Assembly: GCA_013112715.1 (NCBI GenBank)
Contig: JABFGB010000005.1
Location: 192,009-256,008, forward strand
DNA length: 64,000 bases
Source of the DNA: Chloroflexota bacterium
GTDB lineage: Bacteria; Chloroflexota; Anaerolineae; Aggregatilineales; J027
Direction of reading: 5' to 3'
The notes below the pieces were generated by a model. The model was given only the letters and a program-made list of their open reading frames with translations. It did no database searches and was not told the DNA's origin. Shown piece after piece: positions 1,767 to 63,742 of the stretch (positions within the stretch are counted from its first letter, which is position 1; each line of letters starts with the position of its first letter). Both the position numbers and the translations under genes were made by a program.

Positions 1767-3605
1767 ATGGGCTTTATTCTGGATGGGCTGGAAGCCGAAG
1801 AATATGACCGCAGTTATAATGACCGCCAGTTGGTCAAACGTATTGCGGCCTATTTTCGTCCCGAACGCTGGCGCATGGTGGGTGTTTCGGTAGTCATTCT
1901 GCTGTCATCTGTTTTTTCGACGCTACTGCCGATTTACATTTCGCGGGTCATTGATGATTTAAACCGCGACATCAGCGATGCTAATTTGACCACGATCACC
2001 ATCATTGTGACAGCATTGGGTATCCTTGCGTGGGCATTTAACGCCATCCGCCAATGGTATTCATCCGAGGCGGTAGGGAATGTCGTGCTGCGGCTGCGCG
2101 AAGATGCTTTTGATGCAATATTGGCCCGTGACCTCTCGTTTTACGATACCTACCCCTCCGGCAAAATCGTCAGCCGTGTCACTTCGGATTCGCAAGCCTT
2201 CGCTGATGTGGTGATGCTGGTGATGAACCTACTCAGCCAGCTTTTGTTAATTGTGCTGCTGATTGGGTATCTGTTTCTTGTCAGTGTCGAGATGACCCTC
2301 ATTACCCTCGCGCTAGCCCCGCTGATTATCGGCACGGCGCTGGCCTTTCGTAAGGTGGCCCGAGATACCGTCACCCAATCACGGCGTATTTTGGCCGAGG
2401 TTAGCACCCACGTTCAAGAAACGGTCAGCGGCATCGGGGTCGCCAAAACCTTCCGCCAAGAGAATGCCATCTATGACGAATTTCAGGATGTCAACAAGCA
2501 GTCCTATCGCATCAATTTGCGGCGCGGGTACGTCTTTAATGGAATCTTCCCGATTTTGAACATCTTGGCAGGCATTGGCACGGCGGCACTGGTCTATTTT
2601 GGTGGCTTGAATGTGCGCGACGGCTCATTAAGTGCCGGGGACTGGTATCTGTTCATTCAAGGGCTGGCGCTGTTCTGGTTCCCCCTGACCGGGATTGCGT
2701 CATTTTGGAGTCAATTCCAGTTGGGCCTCGCAGCAGGTGAGCGCGTCTTTGCGCTGTTGGACGCAGAATCTAAAGTTGTGCAGACGGGCACTACCAAGCT
2801 CGATACCATGCGCGGCGAAATCCGCTTTGAAGGTCTCTATTTTGGCTACAAGGAATCTGAAGAACAGGTCTTGGAAGATTTTTGGTTGACCATCCGCCCC
2901 GGTGAGACGTTGGCACTGGTGGGGCATACAGGGTCGGGCAAGACCAGCATCACTAAATTGATTGCCCGTTTCTATGAATTTCAGCAGGGCAAAATTTTAA
3001 TAGACGGGCACGACATCCGTAGCCTCGATTTGGATACGTTCCGCGCTCATCTAGGTATCGTCACCCAAACGCCGTTTTTGTTCGACGGCACCGTGATGGA
3101 AAATATCCGGTATGGAAAATCAGATGCCAGCGATGCCGAGGTAGAAACAGTGGCGCGACAGGTCGGCGGGGGGGACTGGATTGATAGCCTGCCCGAAGGA
3201 TTGCAAAGTCCGGCGGGTGAACGGGGTAACAATCTTTCGATGGGTCAGCGACAGTTGGTTGTTTTGGCCCGAGTGCTGCTGCAAAACCCCTCTATCTTGA
3301 TTTTGGATGAAGCCACCGCCAGCATTGACCCCCTAACCGAGACCTTGATTCAAGAGGGCTTGGAGGAGGTATTGAAAGATCGCACTTCGATTGTGGTGGC
3401 CCATCGGCTTTCGACCATCAAGAACGCAGATCGTATTATTGTGCTGCGCGAGGGGGAGATTATCGAAGAGGGCAATCATGAGGCGCTGTTGAAAAAAGGT
3501 GGGCATTATGCCGAGTTGTATAACACCTATTTCCGCCACCAGAGCCTTGAATATATGAACATCCACCCCGAAGACTGGTTCAAGTCGGCGCGGGCAACAG
3601 CGTAG
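1767..3605 (+). CDS. ABC exporter, fused permease/ATPase subunit (partner of upstream gene)
   Basis: Six-TM-type N-terminal half. Walker A GHTGSGKTS, signature LSMGQRQL, Walker B ILILDEATA. Lies 15 nt after the previous stop, preceded by gggagag RBS. Confidence 0.9.
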   Translation: MGFILDGLEAEEYDRSYNDRQLVKRIAAYFRPERWRMVGVSVVILLSSVFSTLLPIYISRVIDDLNRDISDANLTTITIIVTALGILAWAFNAIRQWYSSEAVGNVVLRLREDAFDAILARDLSFYDTYPSGKIVSRVTSDSQAFADVVMLVMNLLSQLLLIVLLIGYLFLVSVEMTLITLALAPLIIGTALAFRKVARDTVTQSRRILAEVSTHVQETVSGIGVAKTFRQENAIYDEFQDVNKQSYRINLRRGYVFNGIFPILNILAGIGTAALVYFGGLNVRDGSLSAGDWYLFIQGLALFWFPLTGIASFWSQFQLGLAAGERVFALLDAESKVVQTGTTKLDTMRGEIRFEGLYFGYKESEEQVLEDFWLTIRPGETLALVGHTGSGKTSITKLIARFYEFQQGKILIDGHDIRSLDLDTFRAHLGIVTQTPFLFDGTVMENIRYGKSDASDAEVETVARQVGGGDWIDSLPEGLQSPAGERGNNLSMGQRQLVVLARVLLQNPSILILDEATASIDPLTETLIQEGLEEVLKDRTSIVVAHRLSTIKNADRIIVLREGEIIEEGNHEALLKKGGHYAELYNTYFRHQSLEYMNIHPEDWFKSARATA

Positions 3606-3618
3606 AAGCGTTCCATTG

Positions 3619-3650
3619 AGGAGGTGGCTTTTGTCGAGTTTCACCTCCTC
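3619..3650 (+). terminator. Hairpin after the ABC pair (possible terminator)
   Basis: Perfect 9-bp inverted repeat gaggaggtg (3619-3627) / cacctcctc (3642-3650) with a 14-nt loop. The downstream tract is AT-rich but has no clean T-run. Confidence 0.35.
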
Positions 3651-3681
3651 GTGCAAATAATTATTGGAAAGAATACGGATC

Positions 3682-4200
3682 ATGGTCGATAGAATTATTC
3701 AAAATGACGCTCAATTTATGGAATTTGTTCTTGAGTTGTCACACAACACCGATTACAACAAATCTCTTGAGTTATACTTATCTGCCTTGTGGAAACTGCT
3801 GGATGAAAAGCGAAATTCACCCCCTACATGGGAATTATTTGCGACCTTGATAGAAAAGGCATACATTGAAGAAGCGCCGCCTTTTGATCCAGCGTGGCTT
3901 GATTTCAGTGTATCGCCTGATAGTGACCGAATATTTAAAGAGACTGATTTCGCAATAGTCCAAGACTTAATTCTATTTCAAATTGCTGATTTACATCGGA
4001 TGTCCGAGGCTGGAACTCTTTCAATTCCCGTAATGTTTCTATATACAGGCGTTGAATCACCTAGTAAAAGTTACTGGTACAACTTCCACCCTCGAAGTTT
4101 TTGGTCGTGTGCCTTTGGTGAACGAAGGTCAACAGGTCAAACGACTTGCAATTGGGGAAATTTCGCCGTACTTCTCAAATTTGGGCAAGAATACGAATAG
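3682..4200 (+). CDS. Hypothetical protein, paralog A of the ARH-flanking pair
   Basis: ORF 3664..4200 (TTG); ATG at 3682 preferred. Shares ILFQIAD.HRM, WYNFHP, TC.WG.F and a terminal GQ.YE-stop with ORF 5244..5756. AT-rich; one 60-nt line counted at 33% GC. Confidence 0.6.
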   Translation: MVDRIIQNDAQFMEFVLELSHNTDYNKSLELYLSALWKLLDEKRNSPPTWELFATLIEKAYIEEAPPFDPAWLDFSVSPDSDRIFKETDFAIVQDLILFQIADLHRMSEAGTLSIPVMFLYTGVESPSKSYWYNFHPRSFWSCAFGERRSTGQTTCNWGNFAVLLKFGQEYE

Positions 4201-4228
4201 TTCTGATTGAGGCACGTTAAGTATATAT

Positions 4229-5251
4229 ATGGATCAGCAATACATTTCTGGTTGTCTCATCGGCATGGCGCTCGGGGATGCTCTCGGCGCAGAAACCGAA
4301 TTTTTGAATATCAAAGGTATCCTCGAAAAATTCCCACCGTATGGCCCACAAGCCCCCGAGGGCAATCCGGCCCTTGTTACTGATGATACCCAAATGGCAA
4401 TCGCGGTTGGAGAGGCAATAATAGCCGCACCCAAGCCGCTTGAACTCAACAGCCTCGCCCTAGAATTTCGCCGCACTTTTTTGGCATGGTATAACGACCC
4501 TGAAAATAATCGCGCCCCAGGCAACACCTGTCTAACTGCCTGCGAGGAAATGTTTAGGGGCAAATCGTGGCTAGAGGCATCACAAATTAGCTCAAAGGGC
4601 TGTGGTGCAAATATGCGGGTCATGCCGGTTGGGGTATTGGATGTGGATACCATCACCCGTGCAGGCATTGCCCAATTACAGGCCGCCATGACACACGGAC
4701 ACCCCACCGGACTGGCTGCCGCTGATTTGACCGCCTTCGTAATTGCGGATTTGGGCAATGGCGGCACACCAAATGATTTACCCAAACGGGTGCGTGACTA
4801 TGCCCTCTCCCAACGCGAAGTCTATCATACCGATTGGCTGGGCGAATTGTGGTACAAAGCGTTTATGCTGCCAACACCGCAGGCCTATATTGCACATGGG
4901 TGGGATGAATGTCTGGGTGTCTTAGATCGGCTAGATATGGCCCTCGAAAAAATGGATCGGGAAACTGATCCCTGCCTAGCAACCGGGGCGGGTTGGGTGG
5001 CAGAACAAGCCTTTGCAACGGCCTTATTCTGTTTTTTGATGTATCCCGACGACCCGATTGCCGTAATTCGCCGAGCCGTCGTCACGAGTGGTGATTCGGA
5101 TTCCATCGCTTGTATCGCTGGGGCGTTCGCTGGAGCTTATCAAGGTATTGATTCGTGGCCCACCGATTGGGTAGAGCGGATTGAGTATCGGGATCGGATT
5201 TTGAATATAGCTAAGGCGCTTTTGAATTCAAGGGAGGAATCAAATGGATGA
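4229..5251 (+). CDS. ADP-ribosylglycohydrolase family protein (DraG/ARH-like)
   Basis: ARH metal-site motifs GMALGDALGAE, VTDDTQMA and TSGDSDSIACIAGAFAGAYQG. Confidence 0.85.
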   Translation: MDQQYISGCLIGMALGDALGAETEFLNIKGILEKFPPYGPQAPEGNPALVTDDTQMAIAVGEAIIAAPKPLELNSLALEFRRTFLAWYNDPENNRAPGNTCLTACEEMFRGKSWLEASQISSKGCGANMRVMPVGVLDVDTITRAGIAQLQAAMTHGHPTGLAAADLTAFVIADLGNGGTPNDLPKRVRDYALSQREVYHTDWLGELWYKAFMLPTPQAYIAHGWDECLGVLDRLDMALEKMDRETDPCLATGAGWVAEQAFATALFCFLMYPDDPIAVIRRAVVTSGDSDSIACIAGAFAGAYQGIDSWPTDWVERIEYRDRILNIAKALLNSREESNG

Positions 5252-5756
5252 CATACAACTTGAAACGAGCAAACAGTTTCTCGAATATATAAATGCGTTA
5301 AACGAGGAAATAGAAGCAAAAGGCTCTAGTCCACGTTTAGACGCTTATTTGTCATCGCTATATGCCTTAATTCAACCCTATAGAGAGTCTAAGCCAGTGT
5401 GGAATCTTTTTGCCCAATTACTTTCTAGGGCTTTTTCACATGAATCCCTTCCTTTCAACCCAGATTGGCTCCAATATACGACGTATCCTGAACCTACTCT
5501 GCCTGAATTTGAGCAGGTAGAAAAAATGATTCTTTTCCAAATCGCTGATTTCCACAGAATGGGCGAATCTGGCCTTTTGGATCTGTCTCCGGGCAGGTTA
5601 TGGATGGGCGTGAATTCTCCTACAGGTCACCGATGGTACAACTTTCACCCCACAAGCTATTTAGAATGTGCAGCTAGAGGCTCTTCGCAGATGGAGACAA
5701 CTTGTACTTGGGGCTTCTTTCAGCACTTTCTTCTCATGGGGCAAGTTTACGAGTAG
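5244..5756 (+). CDS. Hypothetical protein, paralog B of the ARH-flanking pair
   Basis: ATG overlaps the ARH stop (aATGGATGA, 8-nt overlap). Collinear similarity to 3682..4200 over the whole length. One line counted at 37% GC. Confidence 0.6.
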   Translation: MDDIQLETSKQFLEYINALNEEIEAKGSSPRLDAYLSSLYALIQPYRESKPVWNLFAQLLSRAFSHESLPFNPDWLQYTTYPEPTLPEFEQVEKMILFQIADFHRMGESGLLDLSPGRLWMGVNSPTGHRWYNFHPTSYLECAARGSSQMETTCTWGFFQHFLLMGQVYE

Positions 5757-5847
5757 GACAGTAACTCAAAGCCTTGCCTCGAAAAGTCAATAAGACGTGC
5801 TATCATATCCATCCATTGAAAATGTAGAGGAACTTGAGCAGAGGCTT

Positions 5848-6315
5848 ATGATTCGCGTACTTTTCGTTTGTTTAGGAAATATCTGCCGCTCACCGATGGC
5901 GGAGGGCGTCTTTCAGCACATGGTCAATGAGGCCGGGTTGGGTGAAAAAATCCTGATAGATTCCGCCGGAACCGCCAGTTATCACGAAGGTGAACAGGCG
6001 CATAGTGGCACACGGCGCGTTTTACAGGAACACGGCATTGACTATCGGGGGCGGGCGCGTACACTTACCCGCAATGATTTTTACAATTTTGATTACATTC
6101 TGGCGATGGACGCCGATAACCTCGCGGATATACACAGCCGACAGCCTGCCGACAGCAAAGCACACATTCGGCTGTTTTTGGACTACGCACCCGATCAACC
6201 CGTCCGCGAAGTCCCTGACCCCTACTATAATGGGCGGTTTCAGGAAGTGTATGATTTAGTATCGGCGGCCTCTAAAGGATTATTGGCGGAAATACGCAAG
6301 ACGCACGAGCTATAA
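5848..6315 (+). CDS. Low-molecular-weight protein tyrosine phosphatase
   Basis: P-loop VLFVCLGNICRSPMAEG (CX5R-S) and DP motif VPDPYY. ATG at 5848 (MIRVLFVC) is preferred over the upstream GTG at 5797. Confidence 0.85.
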   Translation: MIRVLFVCLGNICRSPMAEGVFQHMVNEAGLGEKILIDSAGTASYHEGEQAHSGTRRVLQEHGIDYRGRARTLTRNDFYNFDYILAMDADNLADIHSRQPADSKAHIRLFLDYAPDQPVREVPDPYYNGRFQEVYDLVSAASKGLLAEIRKTHEL

Positions 6316-6327
6316 GGAACTGCCCCA

Positions 6328-7200
6328 ATGCGCCTGCCTGTGGGAATTGAAAACGCCTTGCGCGATAAATTCAAAATCGTGCCTAAAGACGTGCAGCCTT
6401 GTGTTGGTGGCGACATTAACCAAGCTGCACAAATTGCCACAGGTGATGGCCTGCTATTCATCAAATGGAATGAAAATGCGCTGTCGGGGATGTTTACCGC
6501 CGAATCAAAGGGATTAAAAATCCTGCGGGATTCCAAAACCCTGCGTGTACCAGAAGTCATCGCGGTGCAGGAGGCCGAGGGCGACACCCCCGCTTTTTTG
6601 GTTTTAGAATGGCTGGAGTCGGGTCAAGCGAATTTGCAGACGCCCGAGCAATTAGGTCAAGGACTCGCCGCGCTGCATCGCCAAACCGCCCCCAAGCATG
6701 GCCTTGACCATGATAATTTTATTGGGTCGCTACTCCAATCGAATACGCAGCATGATTCGTGGGTAACATTTTATGCCGAACAGCGCATCCGCCCCCAAAT
6801 GGAAATCGCTCGTCAAAAAGGGACACTGCGTCCGGGGCGTGAACGCATGTTGGAAGTTTTTTTGGCCCATCTGCCAAAATTGATTCAAGACGCCCCTGCC
6901 AGTTTGCTGCACGGCGATTTGTGGGGCGGCAATGTCATGATTCTCGCCAATCAGCAGCCCGCTGTAATTGACCCCGCCGTGTATTATGGCAACCGCGAAG
7001 TTGAGCTTGCCTTTACTGAATTATTCGGCGGGTTTGCCAAACGCTTCTATGACGCCTATCACGCTGCCTATCCACTTGAACCGGGCTACCCCAGCCGCCG
7101 CGCCCTCTATCAACTGTATCCGTTGATGGTGCATATGAATCTGTTCGGTGGGGGTTATGCCAGTCGTGTTGATTCTATCCTCAGCCAGTATGTAGGGTAA
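6328..7200 (+). CDS. Fructosamine/ketosamine kinase family protein
   Basis: Kinase-fold motif LLHGDLWGGNVM and DPAVYYGNREVELA. Length 290 aa. Adjacency to an LMW-PTP gene is common. Confidence 0.8.
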   Translation: MRLPVGIENALRDKFKIVPKDVQPCVGGDINQAAQIATGDGLLFIKWNENALSGMFTAESKGLKILRDSKTLRVPEVIAVQEAEGDTPAFLVLEWLESGQANLQTPEQLGQGLAALHRQTAPKHGLDHDNFIGSLLQSNTQHDSWVTFYAEQRIRPQMEIARQKGTLRPGRERMLEVFLAHLPKLIQDAPASLLHGDLWGGNVMILANQQPAVIDPAVYYGNREVELAFTELFGGFAKRFYDAYHAAYPLEPGYPSRRALYQLYPLMVHMNLFGGGYASRVDSILSQYVG

Positions 7201-23371: not shown

Positions 23372-24172
23372 ATGAAACACCATATATTTTTGAGCTATAG
23401 TCGAGAAGATATATTAATCGTGAACTTGATCAGGGATGATTTCGAGAAAGAAGGCTTCACTGTCTGGACTGATCAGCACATAAAACCCGGAGATTCTTCT
23501 TGGATCAAGCAAATACAAAAAGCCATTGAAGATAGTGGATGCGTTGTTGTCATAATGACCCCTGAAGCTAAAAATTCGGAATGGGTAGAAAAAGAAATTG
23601 AATATGCTCAGGCCCTCGATCGGCCTATCATACCGTTACTTGCAAGAGGGAATAAGGCAACAGCAGTACCGGTAGCTATTATAACCTCTCAGCATATTGA
23701 TATTAAGGAGAATCGCATTGGTGCCATACGTAGAGCATCAAATACTATTAGAGAACTTCTCAATCTTCCACCCAAACCTGAAGATTTAGCTGGATTTTGG
23801 GCAAGCAATACAGATGATTATTTCTCTTTACAGGAAGGAAAAACACTTAGAGAACTATGGGAAAATATTACGAAAGATTCTGGAATTATAATAATCCTTG
23901 ATGAAAAGCATAAATTAGTTGGCATGATAAGTATAGGAGATTTGCTCAAACGTCTGTTAGAAGAAGATTTGAGTGAAAACACCCCAATAAAGCGCCTTAT
24001 GGTACCTAAGTCAAAAATAAAGCATGTAAAAGAAACCAGTACGATGAGCGAAGTTCATAGGCTAATTGCGAACTTCGAAATCGATCAAGTACCTGTGTTA
24101 AATGAAAATGATGAGTTAACGGGTGTTGTAACAAAAAGTGAGGTGGCTGCATGGTTTAGAAAAAACCGCTGA
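23372..24172 (+). CDS. TIR domain - CBS pair (Bateman) fusion protein
   Basis: N-terminal HIFLSYSREDI...FTVWTD...VVVIMTPEAKNSEWVEKEIEYA fits a TIR_2-like fold with the conserved W...E glutamate. The C-terminal half has two CBS-like repeats (IIILDEKHKLVGMISIGDLL and IDQVPVLNENDELTGVVTKSEV). Sample lines count 28-38% GC versus ~53% in flanking gltB. Confidence 0.75.
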   Translation: MKHHIFLSYSREDILIVNLIRDDFEKEGFTVWTDQHIKPGDSSWIKQIQKAIEDSGCVVVIMTPEAKNSEWVEKEIEYAQALDRPIIPLLARGNKATAVPVAIITSQHIDIKENRIGAIRRASNTIRELLNLPPKPEDLAGFWASNTDDYFSLQEGKTLRELWENITKDSGIIIILDEKHKLVGMISIGDLLKRLLEEDLSENTPIKRLMVPKSKIKHVKETSTMSEVHRLIANFEIDQVPVLNENDELTGVVTKSEVAAWFRKNR

Positions 24173-61349: not shown

Positions 61350-62339
61350 TCAGATCGTCAGGCCCATCCGCGCATACGCATAGCGACGTTTAAAGCCGAG
61401 TTGCTCGACGGCTTCAATCAGGTTGGTCTGCCACACTGGAATTTGAATCTCAATCTTATGGCCCGGACTGAGTTCAAGGATTTCGCGCACCAACTTGACC
61501 AAGAGAGGATAAGCCAGTTCAGGCTGAGTGGGGTCTATCTCTAGGATGATATTATTTAGACCGCCCTTTTTTCTCAACGCCCCAAAACGACCAACAGCGA
61601 CTACCTGCCCATTTTTATCCTGCACCTGATAGCGGCGGCGAGTCGTCTTAGTAATATAGCTGATAATGGACATCATGATTCGGGCGGCGGCGGGTACGCG
61701 GTAGACCGATTCCGCGACTGGCTCATATTCCTGCACAATTGCCGGGGTAATGCGCTGCGCCAGCTGATAACGCGGCTGCCATTCGGATGACTTTAGGGGA
61801 GCCATGGTATAAGTGGAAGTCCATGGGGCCTCAGTGGGTGGGGTAGGGGCTTCATAATCGTAGGTGATGCTGGTCGTATAGTTCACAAACCCCAGTTTTT
61901 CATAAAGTTGTTGGGCGGGCAAATTGCCATCAATTACGTCTAATATAATCTTTTTCGCGCCGCGCTCTCGGCCCAATTTCAAACAGGCTTCAACCAATTT
62001 TCGGGCGAGACCCTTACGCCGATGATCCGGCAGTACCGCCACATTCGACACCATCCATGTATCACTTTTGCCACGCCGCCCGATATTGGCTGTCCCAATG
62101 CGTTTGCCGCCTTCCTCCCAGACGTAACCGTGCATCATATCCTTCATGGAAGGTGAAATAAGGAACAGCACCCGAAAAATGGGCCATAGTTTTTTGACTG
62201 TTCGCAGCATAACGAGGGTGGATTCTTGTTCTTCATCGTCCATATCCCATTCGGGGTGGTCGGGATACTTGGCGGCAACACTCCACACTTCCAACATGCT
62301 ATCAATATCTTTGGGCATCGTAAAGGGGCGGAGAGACAT
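61350..62339 (-). CDS. GNAT-family N-acetyltransferase (two-lobed, 329 aa)
   Basis: Acetyl-CoA loop HRRKGLARKLV. Convergent with the response regulator gene, with a small shared hairpin gacgat/atcgtc at 61341-61359. Confidence 0.65.
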   Translation of the reverse strand: MSLRPFTMPKDIDSMLEVWSVAAKYPDHPEWDMDDEEQESTLVMLRTVKKLWPIFRVLFLISPSMKDMMHGYVWEEGGKRIGTANIGRRGKSDTWMVSNVAVLPDHRRKGLARKLVEACLKLGRERGAKKIILDVIDGNLPAQQLYEKLGFVNYTTSITYDYEAPTPPTEAPWTSTYTMAPLKSSEWQPRYQLAQRITPAIVQEYEPVAESVYRVPAAARIMMSIISYITKTTRRRYQVQDKNGQVVAVGRFGALRKKGGLNNIILEIDPTQPELAYPLLVKLVREILELSPGHKIEIQIPVWQTNLIEAVEQLGFKRRYAYARMGLTI

Positions 62340-62691
62340 TTTGGATACTCCTCATTCAATTTTGGCGGTATCTATTTATACGCAAAAAGCAGTCAATTCG
62401 ATGCACATGGAGGGTAGAAAATTTTGCATACAGAATATACATTCTATTATTGTGGGTTATATGCGCCGAATTTGAATCCGTAACCACGGTTACGCATGAG
62501 TTTGTATTATGACGATAGAGTTAGTGTAGCGAATCGGCTTGAAAAGGGGAAATCAGGGGTAAGGAAGGGTAAGAAATTAACCGTTTTCAAATGGGAGTGA
62601 AATTTTTGGAGATAGCAATTCGCTCACGGGGTTAAAGCCGACGTGCTGAATCTAGATTAAACTCAGGCTGGTCAACATGAGACTATAGTTT

Positions 62692-62720
62692 TTGTGGTGG
62701 TCGCAGTTCTGAAATATACT
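62692..62720 (+). promoter_or_regulatory. Possible promoter (TTGTGG-17-TATACT) for the second TIR gene
   Basis: TTGTGG 62692-62697, TATACT 62715-62720. GTG start at 62753. Confidence 0.3.
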
Positions 62721-62752: not shown

Positions 62753-63742
62753 GTGGGTCATCTTTTTATCAGTTATAGCAAAAAAGATATAGATTTCGCT
62801 CGTAACCTGAAAAAATCTTTGAACGATGCAGGTTTCGATGTTTGGATGGACGAGTCGGAAATTCATCCGGGTCAAGTCTGGGATGATGTTCTTCAACAAA
62901 ATGTCTTGAGTAGTTCTGCTTTATTGGTAGTGATGTCCTCAAATTCTCGCAAATCAGATTGGGTGAAAAATGAAGTTGAATTAGCACGGGAAAAGAAAAT
63001 TCCGATCTTCCCGATTTTGTTAGAGGGTGAGGTCTGGTTTGGGCTTCGACATCTTCAATATGAGGATATGCGCGATCAAGAAAAAACAGTCAAACTCTCT
63101 ATAGAATTTACTGTCAGTTTACGCCAAACGACCTCTGACAAAGGCCATATTCCTTCAACGCCAAAGACAAATCGCCGTATTCGACTTAATGAACCCTGGG
63201 CTATTATTATTGCAGCCCTCATAAGCGGAATATGCCTCATTATTGCCGCATTAATTGCGCTTGGCGATAACAATGACAACGAGAAATCTGAATCTACTCC
63301 ACCGCAAATTGTAGAAGCGACCACTACCGTTGCTCAAACTGTATCGCCATCCAGTACACCCACCAGCACGCCGACTGCCTCTGCCACAACATCCAATATT
63401 CCTACCCAAACAAACGCCGCGACGACGATTTTTACTTCCATACCTACCGAAAGTTCGATTTTAACCACAACTGCCCCCACGACCATCGCCTATCCATGCG
63501 AGGGTCAGATTGTAGATGCTGGTTCGTATGTGACTTCACTCAATGTGGTACGCATTAGTCCATCTCCTGATGCACGATTACGTCCACCTGTCAAAGTTGG
63601 TGATGTAGTGACGATAGAGGCAAAAGAGGGAGAAACAATAGCAAATACCTGGTATCAAATAACCTATGAAGGCCCGAATGGGAGTATTTCGGGCTGGATA
63701 CCCGATGAATATCTAGCTCTATCTGAAAACTGCCCTAAATAA
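62753..63742 (+). CDS. TIR, TM, S/T-rich linker, SH3b-like domain protein
   Basis: HLFISYSKKDI...FDVWMDE...LLVVMSSNSRKSDWVKNEVELA is TIR_2-like with the conserved W...E. TM helix WAIIIAALISGICLIIAALIAL. T/S/P linker. C-terminal LNVVRISPSP...WYQITYEG..GSISGWIPDEYL is SH3b-like. Confidence 0.75.
   Translation: MGHLFISYSKKDIDFARNLKKSLNDAGFDVWMDESEIHPGQVWDDVLQQNVLSSSALLVVMSSNSRKSDWVKNEVELAREKKIPIFPILLEGEVWFGLRHLQYEDMRDQEKTVKLSIEFTVSLRQTTSDKGHIPSTPKTNRRIRLNEPWAIIIAALISGICLIIAALIALGDNNDNEKSESTPPQIVEATTTVAQTVSPSSTPTSTPTASATTSNIPTQTNAATTIFTSIPTESSILTTTAPTTIAYPCEGQIVDAGSYVTSLNVVRISPSPDARLRPPVKVGDVVTIEAKEGETIANTWYQITYEGPNGSISGWIPDEYLALSENCPK

Follow-up and report, generated by a model that had tools for sequence, protein, structure and literature searches.

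A stretch of 64,000 nucleotides (nt) from a Chloroflexota bacterium (contig JABFGB010000005.1, hereafter the window) carries the gene of an ADP-ribosylglycohydrolase (ARH) between two genes encoding small homologous proteins. Both belong to an uncharacterised family of about 170 amino acids (aa), labelled X in the following, with X_A as the upstream and X_B as the downstream copy. X is a real family and a new one, since neither a curated model nor a described function nor a similar solved structure exists for it. In a range of bacteria, X genes are recurrently and lineage-independently linked or fused to genes for enzymes of nicotinamide adenine dinucleotide (NAD) and ADP-ribose chemistry, and as far as the literature was searched, this recurrent coupling to KptA, HD-Nudix, NADAR and ARH is unreported. 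The X-ARH-X order of the window is a one-off arrangement and not a recurring system. The locus can be read as an NAD/ADP-ribose module that includes an accessory protein not recognised before, and its mechanism is inferential.

Layout of the locus

The three genes are encoded on the same strand with the following features.

3682..4200, + strand: X_A, X family, 172 aa from the ATG; open reading frame (ORF), family profile E=9e-51, protein ending in ...GQEYE before the stop codon
4229..5251, + strand: ARH, ADP-ribosylglycohydrolase, 340 aa; PF03747 E=1.2e-63, TDDT at residues 51-54 and GDSDS at residues 288-292
5244..5756, + strand: X_B, X family, 170 aa; ORF, family profile E=2e-56, protein ending in ...GQVYE before the stop codon
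5244..5251, + strand: 8-nt overlap ATGGATGA of the X_B start codon and the ARH stop codon; translational-coupling junction, read from the sequence
5232..5237, + strand: GGGAGG, Shine-Dalgarno-like, within the 3' end of ARH and 6 nt upstream of the X_B ATG

A preliminary description of the locus had proposed an ARH between two homologous ORFs and an overlap of the downstream ATG with the ARH stop codon. Both statements are borne out: all three ORFs exist on the + strand, the central gene matches the ARH family, and the overlap is real, with the X_B ATG at 5244 and the ARH TGA at 5249-5251. The translational coupling of X_B to ARH, proposed there too, is thus supported. The extent given for X_A needs correction. 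It had been drawn from 3664, where an in-frame TTG offers an alternative start, while the ATG at 3682 is the most likely start codon. The public annotation agrees, since X_A is identical to the public protein P0242 ("hypothetical protein BroJett018_13920"), which is annotated from this ATG. X_B is identical to P0001 ("hypothetical protein BroJett018_13940"). The gap between X_A and ARH is 28 nt. The shared strand, this short gap, the 8-nt overlap and the Shine-Dalgarno-like sequence within ARH suggest that X_A, ARH and X_B form a small co-expressed module.

The central enzyme is an ordinary, intact member of its superfamily, predicted to be catalytically competent. PF03747 covers it end to end (215.9 bits against a cut-off of 26.2, profile positions 1-286 of 287). 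Its TDDT aligns with the TDDT of Tri1, MJ1187 and DraG and the SDDT of human ARH1 in a comparison of PDB sequences, and its GDSDS with DDADS, GDTDS, GDADT and GDSDS in the same set. Metal binding by these two motifs is established from the structures of ARH1, ARH3 and DraG. The metal-site residues, on which the assignment in the preliminary description had been made to depend, are therefore present on alignment. The best PDB sequence match is Tri1 (6dre, E=1.5e-18). Nevertheless, the protein fails the Tri1 equivalog model NF041672 of NCBIfam (80.1 bits against a cut-off of 490) as well as the DraG equivalog TIGR02662 (75.7 bits against 337). Its residue 7 aligns to residue 73 of Tri1, so the N-terminal extension of Tri1 is absent. 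No ADP-ribosyltransferase (ART) toxin was found in the Pfam-annotated ±5 kb around ARH, and no DraT or nitrogenase context was found among the window ORFs or in the same ±5 kb.

The X family

An exhaustive HMMER search with a three-sequence profile recovered at least 640 clusters at 50% identity with E<=1e-3, and 448 with E<=1e-10; a word-indexed search with X_B alone gave one distant relative. The members are spread over Chloroflexota, Myxococcota, Actinomycetota, Planctomycetota, Bacteroidota, Bacillota, Verrucomicrobiota and Acidobacteriota, with about 45 Actinomadura/Spirillospora genomes among the Actinomycetota. Two pattern-based scans of viral contigs found no X relatives. X proteins are called hypothetical in every source, and a Pfam domain is present in almost none of them.

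The statement that the flanking genes could not be assigned to any family has held up. NCBIfam, PADLOC, PHROGs and Pfam, including its Imm families, contain no qualifying match for X, and the only signal is a sub-threshold one to DUF7660 (PF24693). It covers the N-terminal three helices (about residues 10-63) with 17.7 bits against a gathering threshold of 27. This model reaches E<=0.01 in 7 of 89 X members, with a best value of E=0.0017, and exceeds the threshold in none. Moreover, it is a 73-position model accounting for less than one third of X, and it is without the WYNF and YE hallmarks of the family. Literature searches returned nothing on DUF7660, and those on operon partners of KptA, Nudix and HD proteins gave no description of the X family.

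Conservation in X is concentrated in a few polar and aromatic positions and at the C-terminus. Among the 89 diverse members, W131, N133, W156 and G166 are invariant, and L32, Y35, L36, F71, W75, Q99, I100, D102, L103, G122, L140, Y169 and E170 are conserved to at least 90%. The hallmarks of the family are QI(A/V)DL, WYNF.P and a C-terminal ...G(Q/R)xYE. The shared motifs listed in the preliminary description (YLS.L, P.W.LFA.L, PF.P.WL, ILFQIAD.HRM.E.G, WYNFHP.S, TC.WG.F and GQ.YE) were all found in both window copies. The C-terminus is exactly "YE" in 307 of 318 members, and in 316 of the 318 nothing follows that Glu. Two length classes exist: a short form of about 170 aa, to which both window copies belong, and a long form of about 196-210 aa with an insert GGW.PGD.TGR..VPG.VAV.D..G... 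between the last two helices. The Myxococcota group linked to KptA is of the long form. The invariant C-terminal YE is common to both.

The AlphaFold2 model of X_B (pLDDT 96.8, pTM 0.91) consists of eight helices and a small hairpin. A Foldseek comparison with 350,542 PDB chains detected nothing similar (best E=3.9, TM<=0.22), and the viral database BFVD gave no match; nothing fell below E of about 2.6 in either set. A profile search of PDB sequences returned noise only (E>=0.06). No known NAD- or ADP-ribose-binding fold was thus detected for X by the sequence-profile and Foldseek searches of the PDB.

X beside enzymes of NAD and ADP-ribose chemistry

The neighbourhood of X was surveyed with Pfam in 39 loci outside Actinomadura. 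Among 133 neighbours at ±2 positions, and within the best 25 of 119 matched families, Tpt1/KptA was the top family with 8 members, followed by HD and NUDIX with 5 each. Tpt1/KptA is an NAD+-dependent RNA 2'-phosphotransferase with an ADP-ribosyltransferase fold. Local hidden Markov models (HMMs) placed KptA no more than a few kb from X at 11 loci. It is convergent and lies 7-13 nt after X in six Myxococcota loci, and in a Bacteroidota locus (L010) the stop codon following the ...YE of X overlaps the KptA start (ATGA). The X proteins linked to KptA belong to two clades that are distant from each other and differ in gene order.

An HD-Nudix fusion protein is encoded directly upstream of X in 7 loci. 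In five Myxococcota loci, the HD-Nudix gene runs into X through 8-nt overlaps of the form ATGG(C/G)TGA, which is the same geometry (ATGGNTGA) as that of ARH and X_B in the window. Furthermore, one HD-X fusion protein is known (P0228). In a metagenome-assembled genome (MAG) of Vallitalea sp. (Bacillota; L003 8315-10500), the gene that directly precedes X on its strand, at a distance of about 250 nt, codes for a NADAR fusion protein. This protein of 475 aa combines an alpha/beta-hydrolase (S15/S9-like) with a NADAR domain (PF08719, E=1.2e-54). A fusion of a different kind is P0208 (305 aa; L123 2-1227), in which X is joined to Barstar (PF01337, E=2.5e-22). Its gene is located downstream of a barnase/RNase Sa-family gene (PF00545, E=3.2e-22) with a 4-nt overlap, on a single 4.4-kb high-GC contig whose end cuts the RNase gene.

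The significance of these associations was assessed after collapsing the loci to lineage clusters by X identity, comparing the ±1 neighbours with genes farther away in the same loci for matches to ARH, KptA, HD-Nudix and NADAR. With clusters at 60% identity, 5.1 of 82.6 neighbours at ±1 were matches against 1.2 of 420 farther genes (p=6e-4); at 50% identity, the values were 3.6 of 51.6 against 1.1 of 286.7 (p=0.002). Published work assigns Tpt1/KptA, HD-Nudix and NADAR, together with ARHs, to one NAD+/ADP-ribose network (PMC8120803, PMC9503650). The link to ADP-ribosylation suggested in the preliminary description thus stands in the sense that X is found beside, coupled or fused to Tpt1/KptA, HD-Nudix and NADAR genes; a conserved linkage to ARH does not.

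In the Myxococcota, a conserved cluster was also observed (L024 1055-3161, and likewise L029, L039, L041, L057, L026 and L011), made up of an HD-Nudix gene (about 320 aa), X (196 aa) and a convergent Tpt1/KptA gene. It may represent an uncharacterised three-gene module of NAD/ADP-ribose or RNA-end chemistry.

ARH beside X in other genomes

A phmmer search with the window ARH found no ARH in 80 genome loci (up to ±10 kb) and one metagenome contig. This genome scan was keyed on WYNFDP and under-samples the WYNFHP subfamily of the window, which was covered by an alignment of its own (A5) in a metagenome scan of 28 loci and a protein search yielding 128 proteins. The 128 proteins are mostly from Chloroflexota, including Ktedonobacter. 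No ARH was present in the 28 metagenome loci, nor in 11 Pfam-annotated look-ups of other organisms. Altogether, about 115 loci other than the window, about 14 contexts of its own subfamily included, yielded no ARH. A conserved X-ARH linkage was therefore rejected; its absence is, taken strictly, one of the outcomes that the preliminary description had named as a refutation, and the "new ARH-centred system" considered there is not one that recurs. All contigs with the identical ARH protein derive from the same organism (Chloroflexota MAG BroJett018) and have the same X-ARH-X order. Tandem copies of X are rare as well in the 80 genome loci and the metagenome contig.

Other genomic contexts of X

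X is mostly met in other surroundings. In L031, L072 and about 45 Actinomadura/Spirillospora loci, it is a syntenic gene of the chromosome with a host-like GC content of about 0.75, flanked by the genes of an aldehyde dehydrogenase on one side and an AraC-family regulator on the other, with that of an alpha/beta hydrolase nearby; no NAD/ADP-ribose enzyme was detected within ±10 kb of X in these loci. In a Blastocatellia MAG (L006 1-3065), X interrupts a histidine-biosynthesis operon, where it is flanked, across 9 and 14 nt, by an ORF matching histidinol dehydrogenase plus aminotransferase and by imidazoleglycerol-phosphate dehydratase. Runs of small unannotated ORFs on the same strand surround X in L001, L004, L082, L083 and L124. 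Among the matches listed for the Pfam-annotated neighbours of about 125 partly annotated loci, no toxin or ART domain lies beside X, with the RNase next to the Barstar-X fusion as the one exception.

Within the subfamily of the window, the contexts are mutually unrelated: X follows cysS (L116) or a 2-oxoacid dehydrogenase operon (L125), or is found with GNAT genes (L104, L114), in a run of small unannotated ORFs (L124) or with AtuA or His_Phos_1. Genes or fragments of ISL3-family transposases are located immediately upstream of X in three loci (L092 3341-3718, L105 2111-2608 and L115 5232-5903), all from this Chloroflexota subfamily and one of them from Ktedonobacter racemifer. This suggests that X travels with, or adjoins, insertion sequence elements in this subfamily.

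Base composition and origin of the two X copies

The mean GC content of the genes is 0.405 for X_A, 0.433 for X_B and 0.523 for ARH, and the whole window averages 0.513. At third codon positions (GC3), the values are 0.364, 0.415 and 0.507, respectively, and 0.46-0.62 in the neighbouring genes. The ARH is genome-typical in GC, and the X genes are AT-shifted. Of the mosaic composition reported in the preliminary description, the AT shift of the X genes holds, also in GC3, but the contrast was overstated, as ARH with 0.52 is not GC-rich; single 60-nt lines range from 0.32-0.33 in the X genes up to 0.62 in ARH. Amino-acid composition as the sole cause of the low GC of the X genes is ruled out, since GC3 is low too. 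An inherent AT-richness of the family was likewise excluded by 77 other loci, in which X tracks the GC of the host from 28% to 78% with a median X-minus-flank difference of +0.015.

The X-minus-flank difference in the window is the most negative when set against those 77 loci, none of which is shifted as far. Because of this, the X genes of the window appear to have arrived relatively recently in surroundings typical of the genome, and both were probably gained by horizontal transfer. Most other genomes seem to carry X as a resident gene, as its GC tracks the host and it is syntenic in about 45 actinomycete genomes; this is more in line with a cellular than with a purely selfish function.

X_A and X_B are paralogs, as had been proposed (BLASTP 40% identity over 175 columns, E=2e-43). 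The image of an ARH sandwiched by paralogs is right in that the two flanks are homologous; it does not reflect a local duplication of recent date. The foreign homolog P0003 shares 49% identity with X_A, and P0243 shares 48% with X_B, values above the identity of the two to each other, and a recent tandem duplication is thereby ruled out. In a rough neighbour-joining tree, they are sisters on long branches, and an ancient duplication is possible.

Proposed role of X and alternative explanations

The explanation we favour, plausible though falling somewhat short of probable, is that X_A, ARH and X_B form a co-expressed module in which X is a non-enzymatic partner of ADP-ribose-processing enzymes. 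X would be a stoichiometric partner and not an enzyme of a known class. It would bind an ADP-ribose-type ligand, an ADP-ribosylated or phosphate-ended nucleic-acid substrate, or the partner enzyme, and it would direct or gate the removal of ADP-ribose by ARH at this locus and by HD-Nudix, KptA or NADAR elsewhere. A putative binding site would comprise Y35, Q99, D102, W131, N133, W156, Y169 and the terminal carboxyl group of E170. Two copies of X would provide one hydrolase with two specificities or with two regulatory inputs. The anatomy of the locus, the coupling, the X family and the enrichment of its contexts are established by the analysis, whereas the binding role of X and any effect on ARH are inferred. 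A bolder version, which we consider unlikely, sees in X a new fold that serves as dedicated partner (reader, adaptor or pseudo-substrate regulator) of KptA, ARH, NADAR and HD-Nudix enzymes, with the free C-terminal Tyr-Glu-COOH as a functional element. This terminus might enter the phosphate- or ADP-ribose-binding site of the partner, or might itself be reversibly ADP-ribosylated. If this were true, the ARH of the window with its two X proteins would represent, in minimal form, a new layer of regulation in the signalling and repair that bacteria base on ADP-ribose.

Several observations weigh against a partnership of X with these enzymes. The enrichment is moderate and not overwhelming, and its models were built from positives, so that divergent matches among the farther genes may have been missed. 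Most X contexts are without an NAD/ADP-ribose gene, and the linkage is seen in a minority only. In the subfamily of the window, such an enzyme occurs in 1 of about 14 contexts, and that one is the window itself; the adjacency of X and ARH is confined to the contigs of this organism. Tight coupling of X is also seen with CysRS, hisD/C, hisB, PEBP, SDR and AtuA genes, and with His_Phos_1, GNAT and AraC genes and a 2-oxoacid dehydrogenase operon. Finally, the AT shift of the X genes relative to ARH suggests that they arrived separately from it.

These points lead to the alternative that X is a mobile gene inserting after well-expressed genes, of which two copies came to flank a resident ARH by chance or hitch-hiking, with no functional tie between them. 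The ARH may then belong with the gene pair downstream of X_B, a low-molecular-weight (LMW) phosphotyrosine phosphatase and a fructosamine kinase. The genome-typical GC3 of ARH, with the X genes about 10-15 points lower and their flank difference the most negative of all loci compared, is in agreement with this, as are the lack of a recent duplication, the lack of ARH near X in the other loci surveyed, and the positions of X behind cysS or a dehydrogenase operon, within a his operon and next to transposases. Chance does not readily account for the exact 8-nt overlap with an internal Shine-Dalgarno-like sequence, which recurs in the same geometry with HD-Nudix in Myxococcota. Nor does it explain why four NAD/ADP-ribose families occur at ±1 of X in at least five independent lineages (p about 6e-4 to 2e-3), or the existence of an HD-X fusion, and two independent insertions on either side of one 1-kb gene are improbable. 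We regard a chance adjacency as somewhat unlikely.

Another possibility, raised already in the preliminary description, is an orphan immunity or protection island in which X binds toxins, for instance effectors of competitors that target nucleic acids or ADP-ribosylate, ARH reverses their modification, the two X copies match two toxin variants, and the locus, serving protection only, encodes no cognate toxin. On balance this is unlikely. The Barstar-X fusion, overlapped downstream of a barnase/RNase Sa-family gene, belongs to a classical toxin-immunity pair. Roles as antitoxin or immunity enzyme are known for ARH (Tri1) and NADAR, and a hydrolase that stands alone can give protection against ART toxins (PMC8120803, PMC11125620, PMC11833690). 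The frequent runs of small unannotated same-strand ORFs around X, the patchy distribution with ISL3 transposase fragments upstream (L092, L105, L115), the AT-shifted window copies and the presence of two divergent paralogs, which is typical of immunity arrays, would fit as well. However, no toxin or ART is found beside X in the annotated neighbours except the RNase, whose cognate inhibitor is Barstar, and X has no match to Pfam Imm families or PADLOC models. It is unusual for proteins coevolving with toxins that polar and aromatic residues as well as the C-terminus stay invariant from phylum to phylum, and X is syntenic with host-like GC across an actinomycete genus group. The ARH itself has no Tri1 N-terminal extension and scores below the Tri1 equivalog cut-off. 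It is very unlikely that X is the toxin of a toxin-antitoxin-like pair, inhibiting growth through NAD+/ADP-ribose chemistry with the upstream hydrolase (ARH here, HD-Nudix or NADAR elsewhere) as antitoxin. The hydrolase-first, X-second order with overlapping stop and start codons does resemble type II toxin-antitoxin operons, and the hydrolase antitoxins DarG and NADAR are established (PMC11125620). Nevertheless, by far the most loci, those of the actinomycete genus group included, have X on its own, which would be intolerable for a toxin; X is all-alpha and unlike ART, TIR, RES or sirtuin folds; X_A precedes ARH; and PADLOC gives no match.

The idea of a co-expressed module with X as partner protein has consequences beyond this locus. 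Bacterial ADP-ribosylation of protein, DNA and RNA is a fast-moving field that extends to toxins, phage defence and RNA repair. What bacterial Tpt1/KptA does in the cell is, to our knowledge, not established, and this is also true of many ARH, NADAR and Nudix enzymes that stand alone. The X family could be a missing accessory component and could provide a testable handle on the targets of these enzymes. If the link turns out to be coincidental, X is still a new domain of unknown function, and the ARH sandwich a one-off.

Other features of the window

Upstream of X_A, two ABC-transporter genes (57-1751 and 1767-3605) are found, the second of which ends 76 nt before the ATG of X_A. This gap contains a perfect 9-bp inverted repeat (GAGGAGGTG...CACCTCCTC, 3617-3651). 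It was rejected as a feature, as its hairpin of -20 kcal/mol is no better than those of shuffled sequences (z=-1.0) and has no T-tract; there is no terminator-like site either. An Rfam scan of 3300-6000 detected no RNA family.

Downstream, X_B is followed after a 40-nt gap by the LMW phosphotyrosine phosphatase gene (5797-6315, + strand; PF01451, E=5e-42) and then by a gene of the fructosamine-kinase family (6328-7200, + strand; PF03881, E=4e-86). Pairs of such genes have been linked to protein deglycation. If this pair has that function, the functional partners of ARH might be its two products instead of X.

At about 17.6 kb from the ARH locus, a protein of 266 aa is encoded (23372-24172, + strand) in an AT-rich patch at about 23.1-24.3 kb, where the GC content is lower than anywhere else in the window (0.36-0.39 per 500 nt). 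The N-terminus of the protein is TIR-like (FLSYSRED...), with weak PDB matches to bacterial TIR proteins, the TIR of TLR1 and the CRISPR-associated Cat1 (E=5e-4 to 3e-3), and its C-terminus carries a CBS pair (E=1.5e-14). TIR domains often consume NAD+, and this gene is a second foreign-looking one with putative NAD chemistry. A further AT-rich patch at about 62300-62700 (0.38-0.39), between divergent ORFs (61350-62339, - strand, and 62753-63742, + strand), is probably an intergenic promoter region.

Comparison with known systems

The Tre1-Tri1 pair of Serratia resembles the locus in having a hydrolase of the ARH superfamily with the metal motifs TDDT and GD.DS, and a role in reversal is conceivable here as well. 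The ART toxin and the N-terminal extension of Tri1 belong to that system and were not found at the window locus, and no X-like partner is known from Tri1 systems. DraG of the DraT-DraG system shares the fold, the family and the aligned metal motifs; the DraT and nitrogenase context was not found at the window locus.

DarT-NADAR and DarTG are comparable in that the gene of an ADP-ribosyl hydrolase lies beside that of a small partner, and a NADAR gene is present upstream of X in the Vallitalea locus. NADARs act as antitoxins that reverse guanine ADP-ribosylation (PMC11125620). In contrast to these systems, no DarT-like ART was found here, X is all-alpha and not ART-like, and the NADAR and X genes of Vallitalea do not overlap but are about 250 nt apart. 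As for Barnase-Barstar, X has neither sequence nor fold similarity to Barstar, and an RNase is absent from the window locus. The single Barstar-X fusion suggests, nonetheless, that X is able to act in a protective setting against nucleic-acid damage.

A likeness also exists to the NAD+/ADP-ribose operons (de Souza and Aravind 2012, as presented in PMC8120803 and PMC9503650), whose repertoire, to the extent given there, comprises the enzymes found beside X. Bacterial KptA occurs in such operons together with ARHs, macrodomains, sirtuins and NADAR (PMC8120803). Ends of RNA or DNA that KptA ADP-ribosylates at the 5'-phosphate are restored by ARH-like and macrodomain enzymes, and stand-alone hydrolases can shield cells from ART toxins (PMC11833690). 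For Nudix domains that are linked to KptA or fused with it, a role in processing the ADP-ribose by-products of KptA has been proposed (PMC9503650). The window differs from these operons in having ARH only, and a helical domain like X with a C-terminal YE is not described for them in the literature searched. The coupling and fusion of X to members of this enzyme repertoire suggest that X is an additional component of NAD+/ADP-ribose operons.

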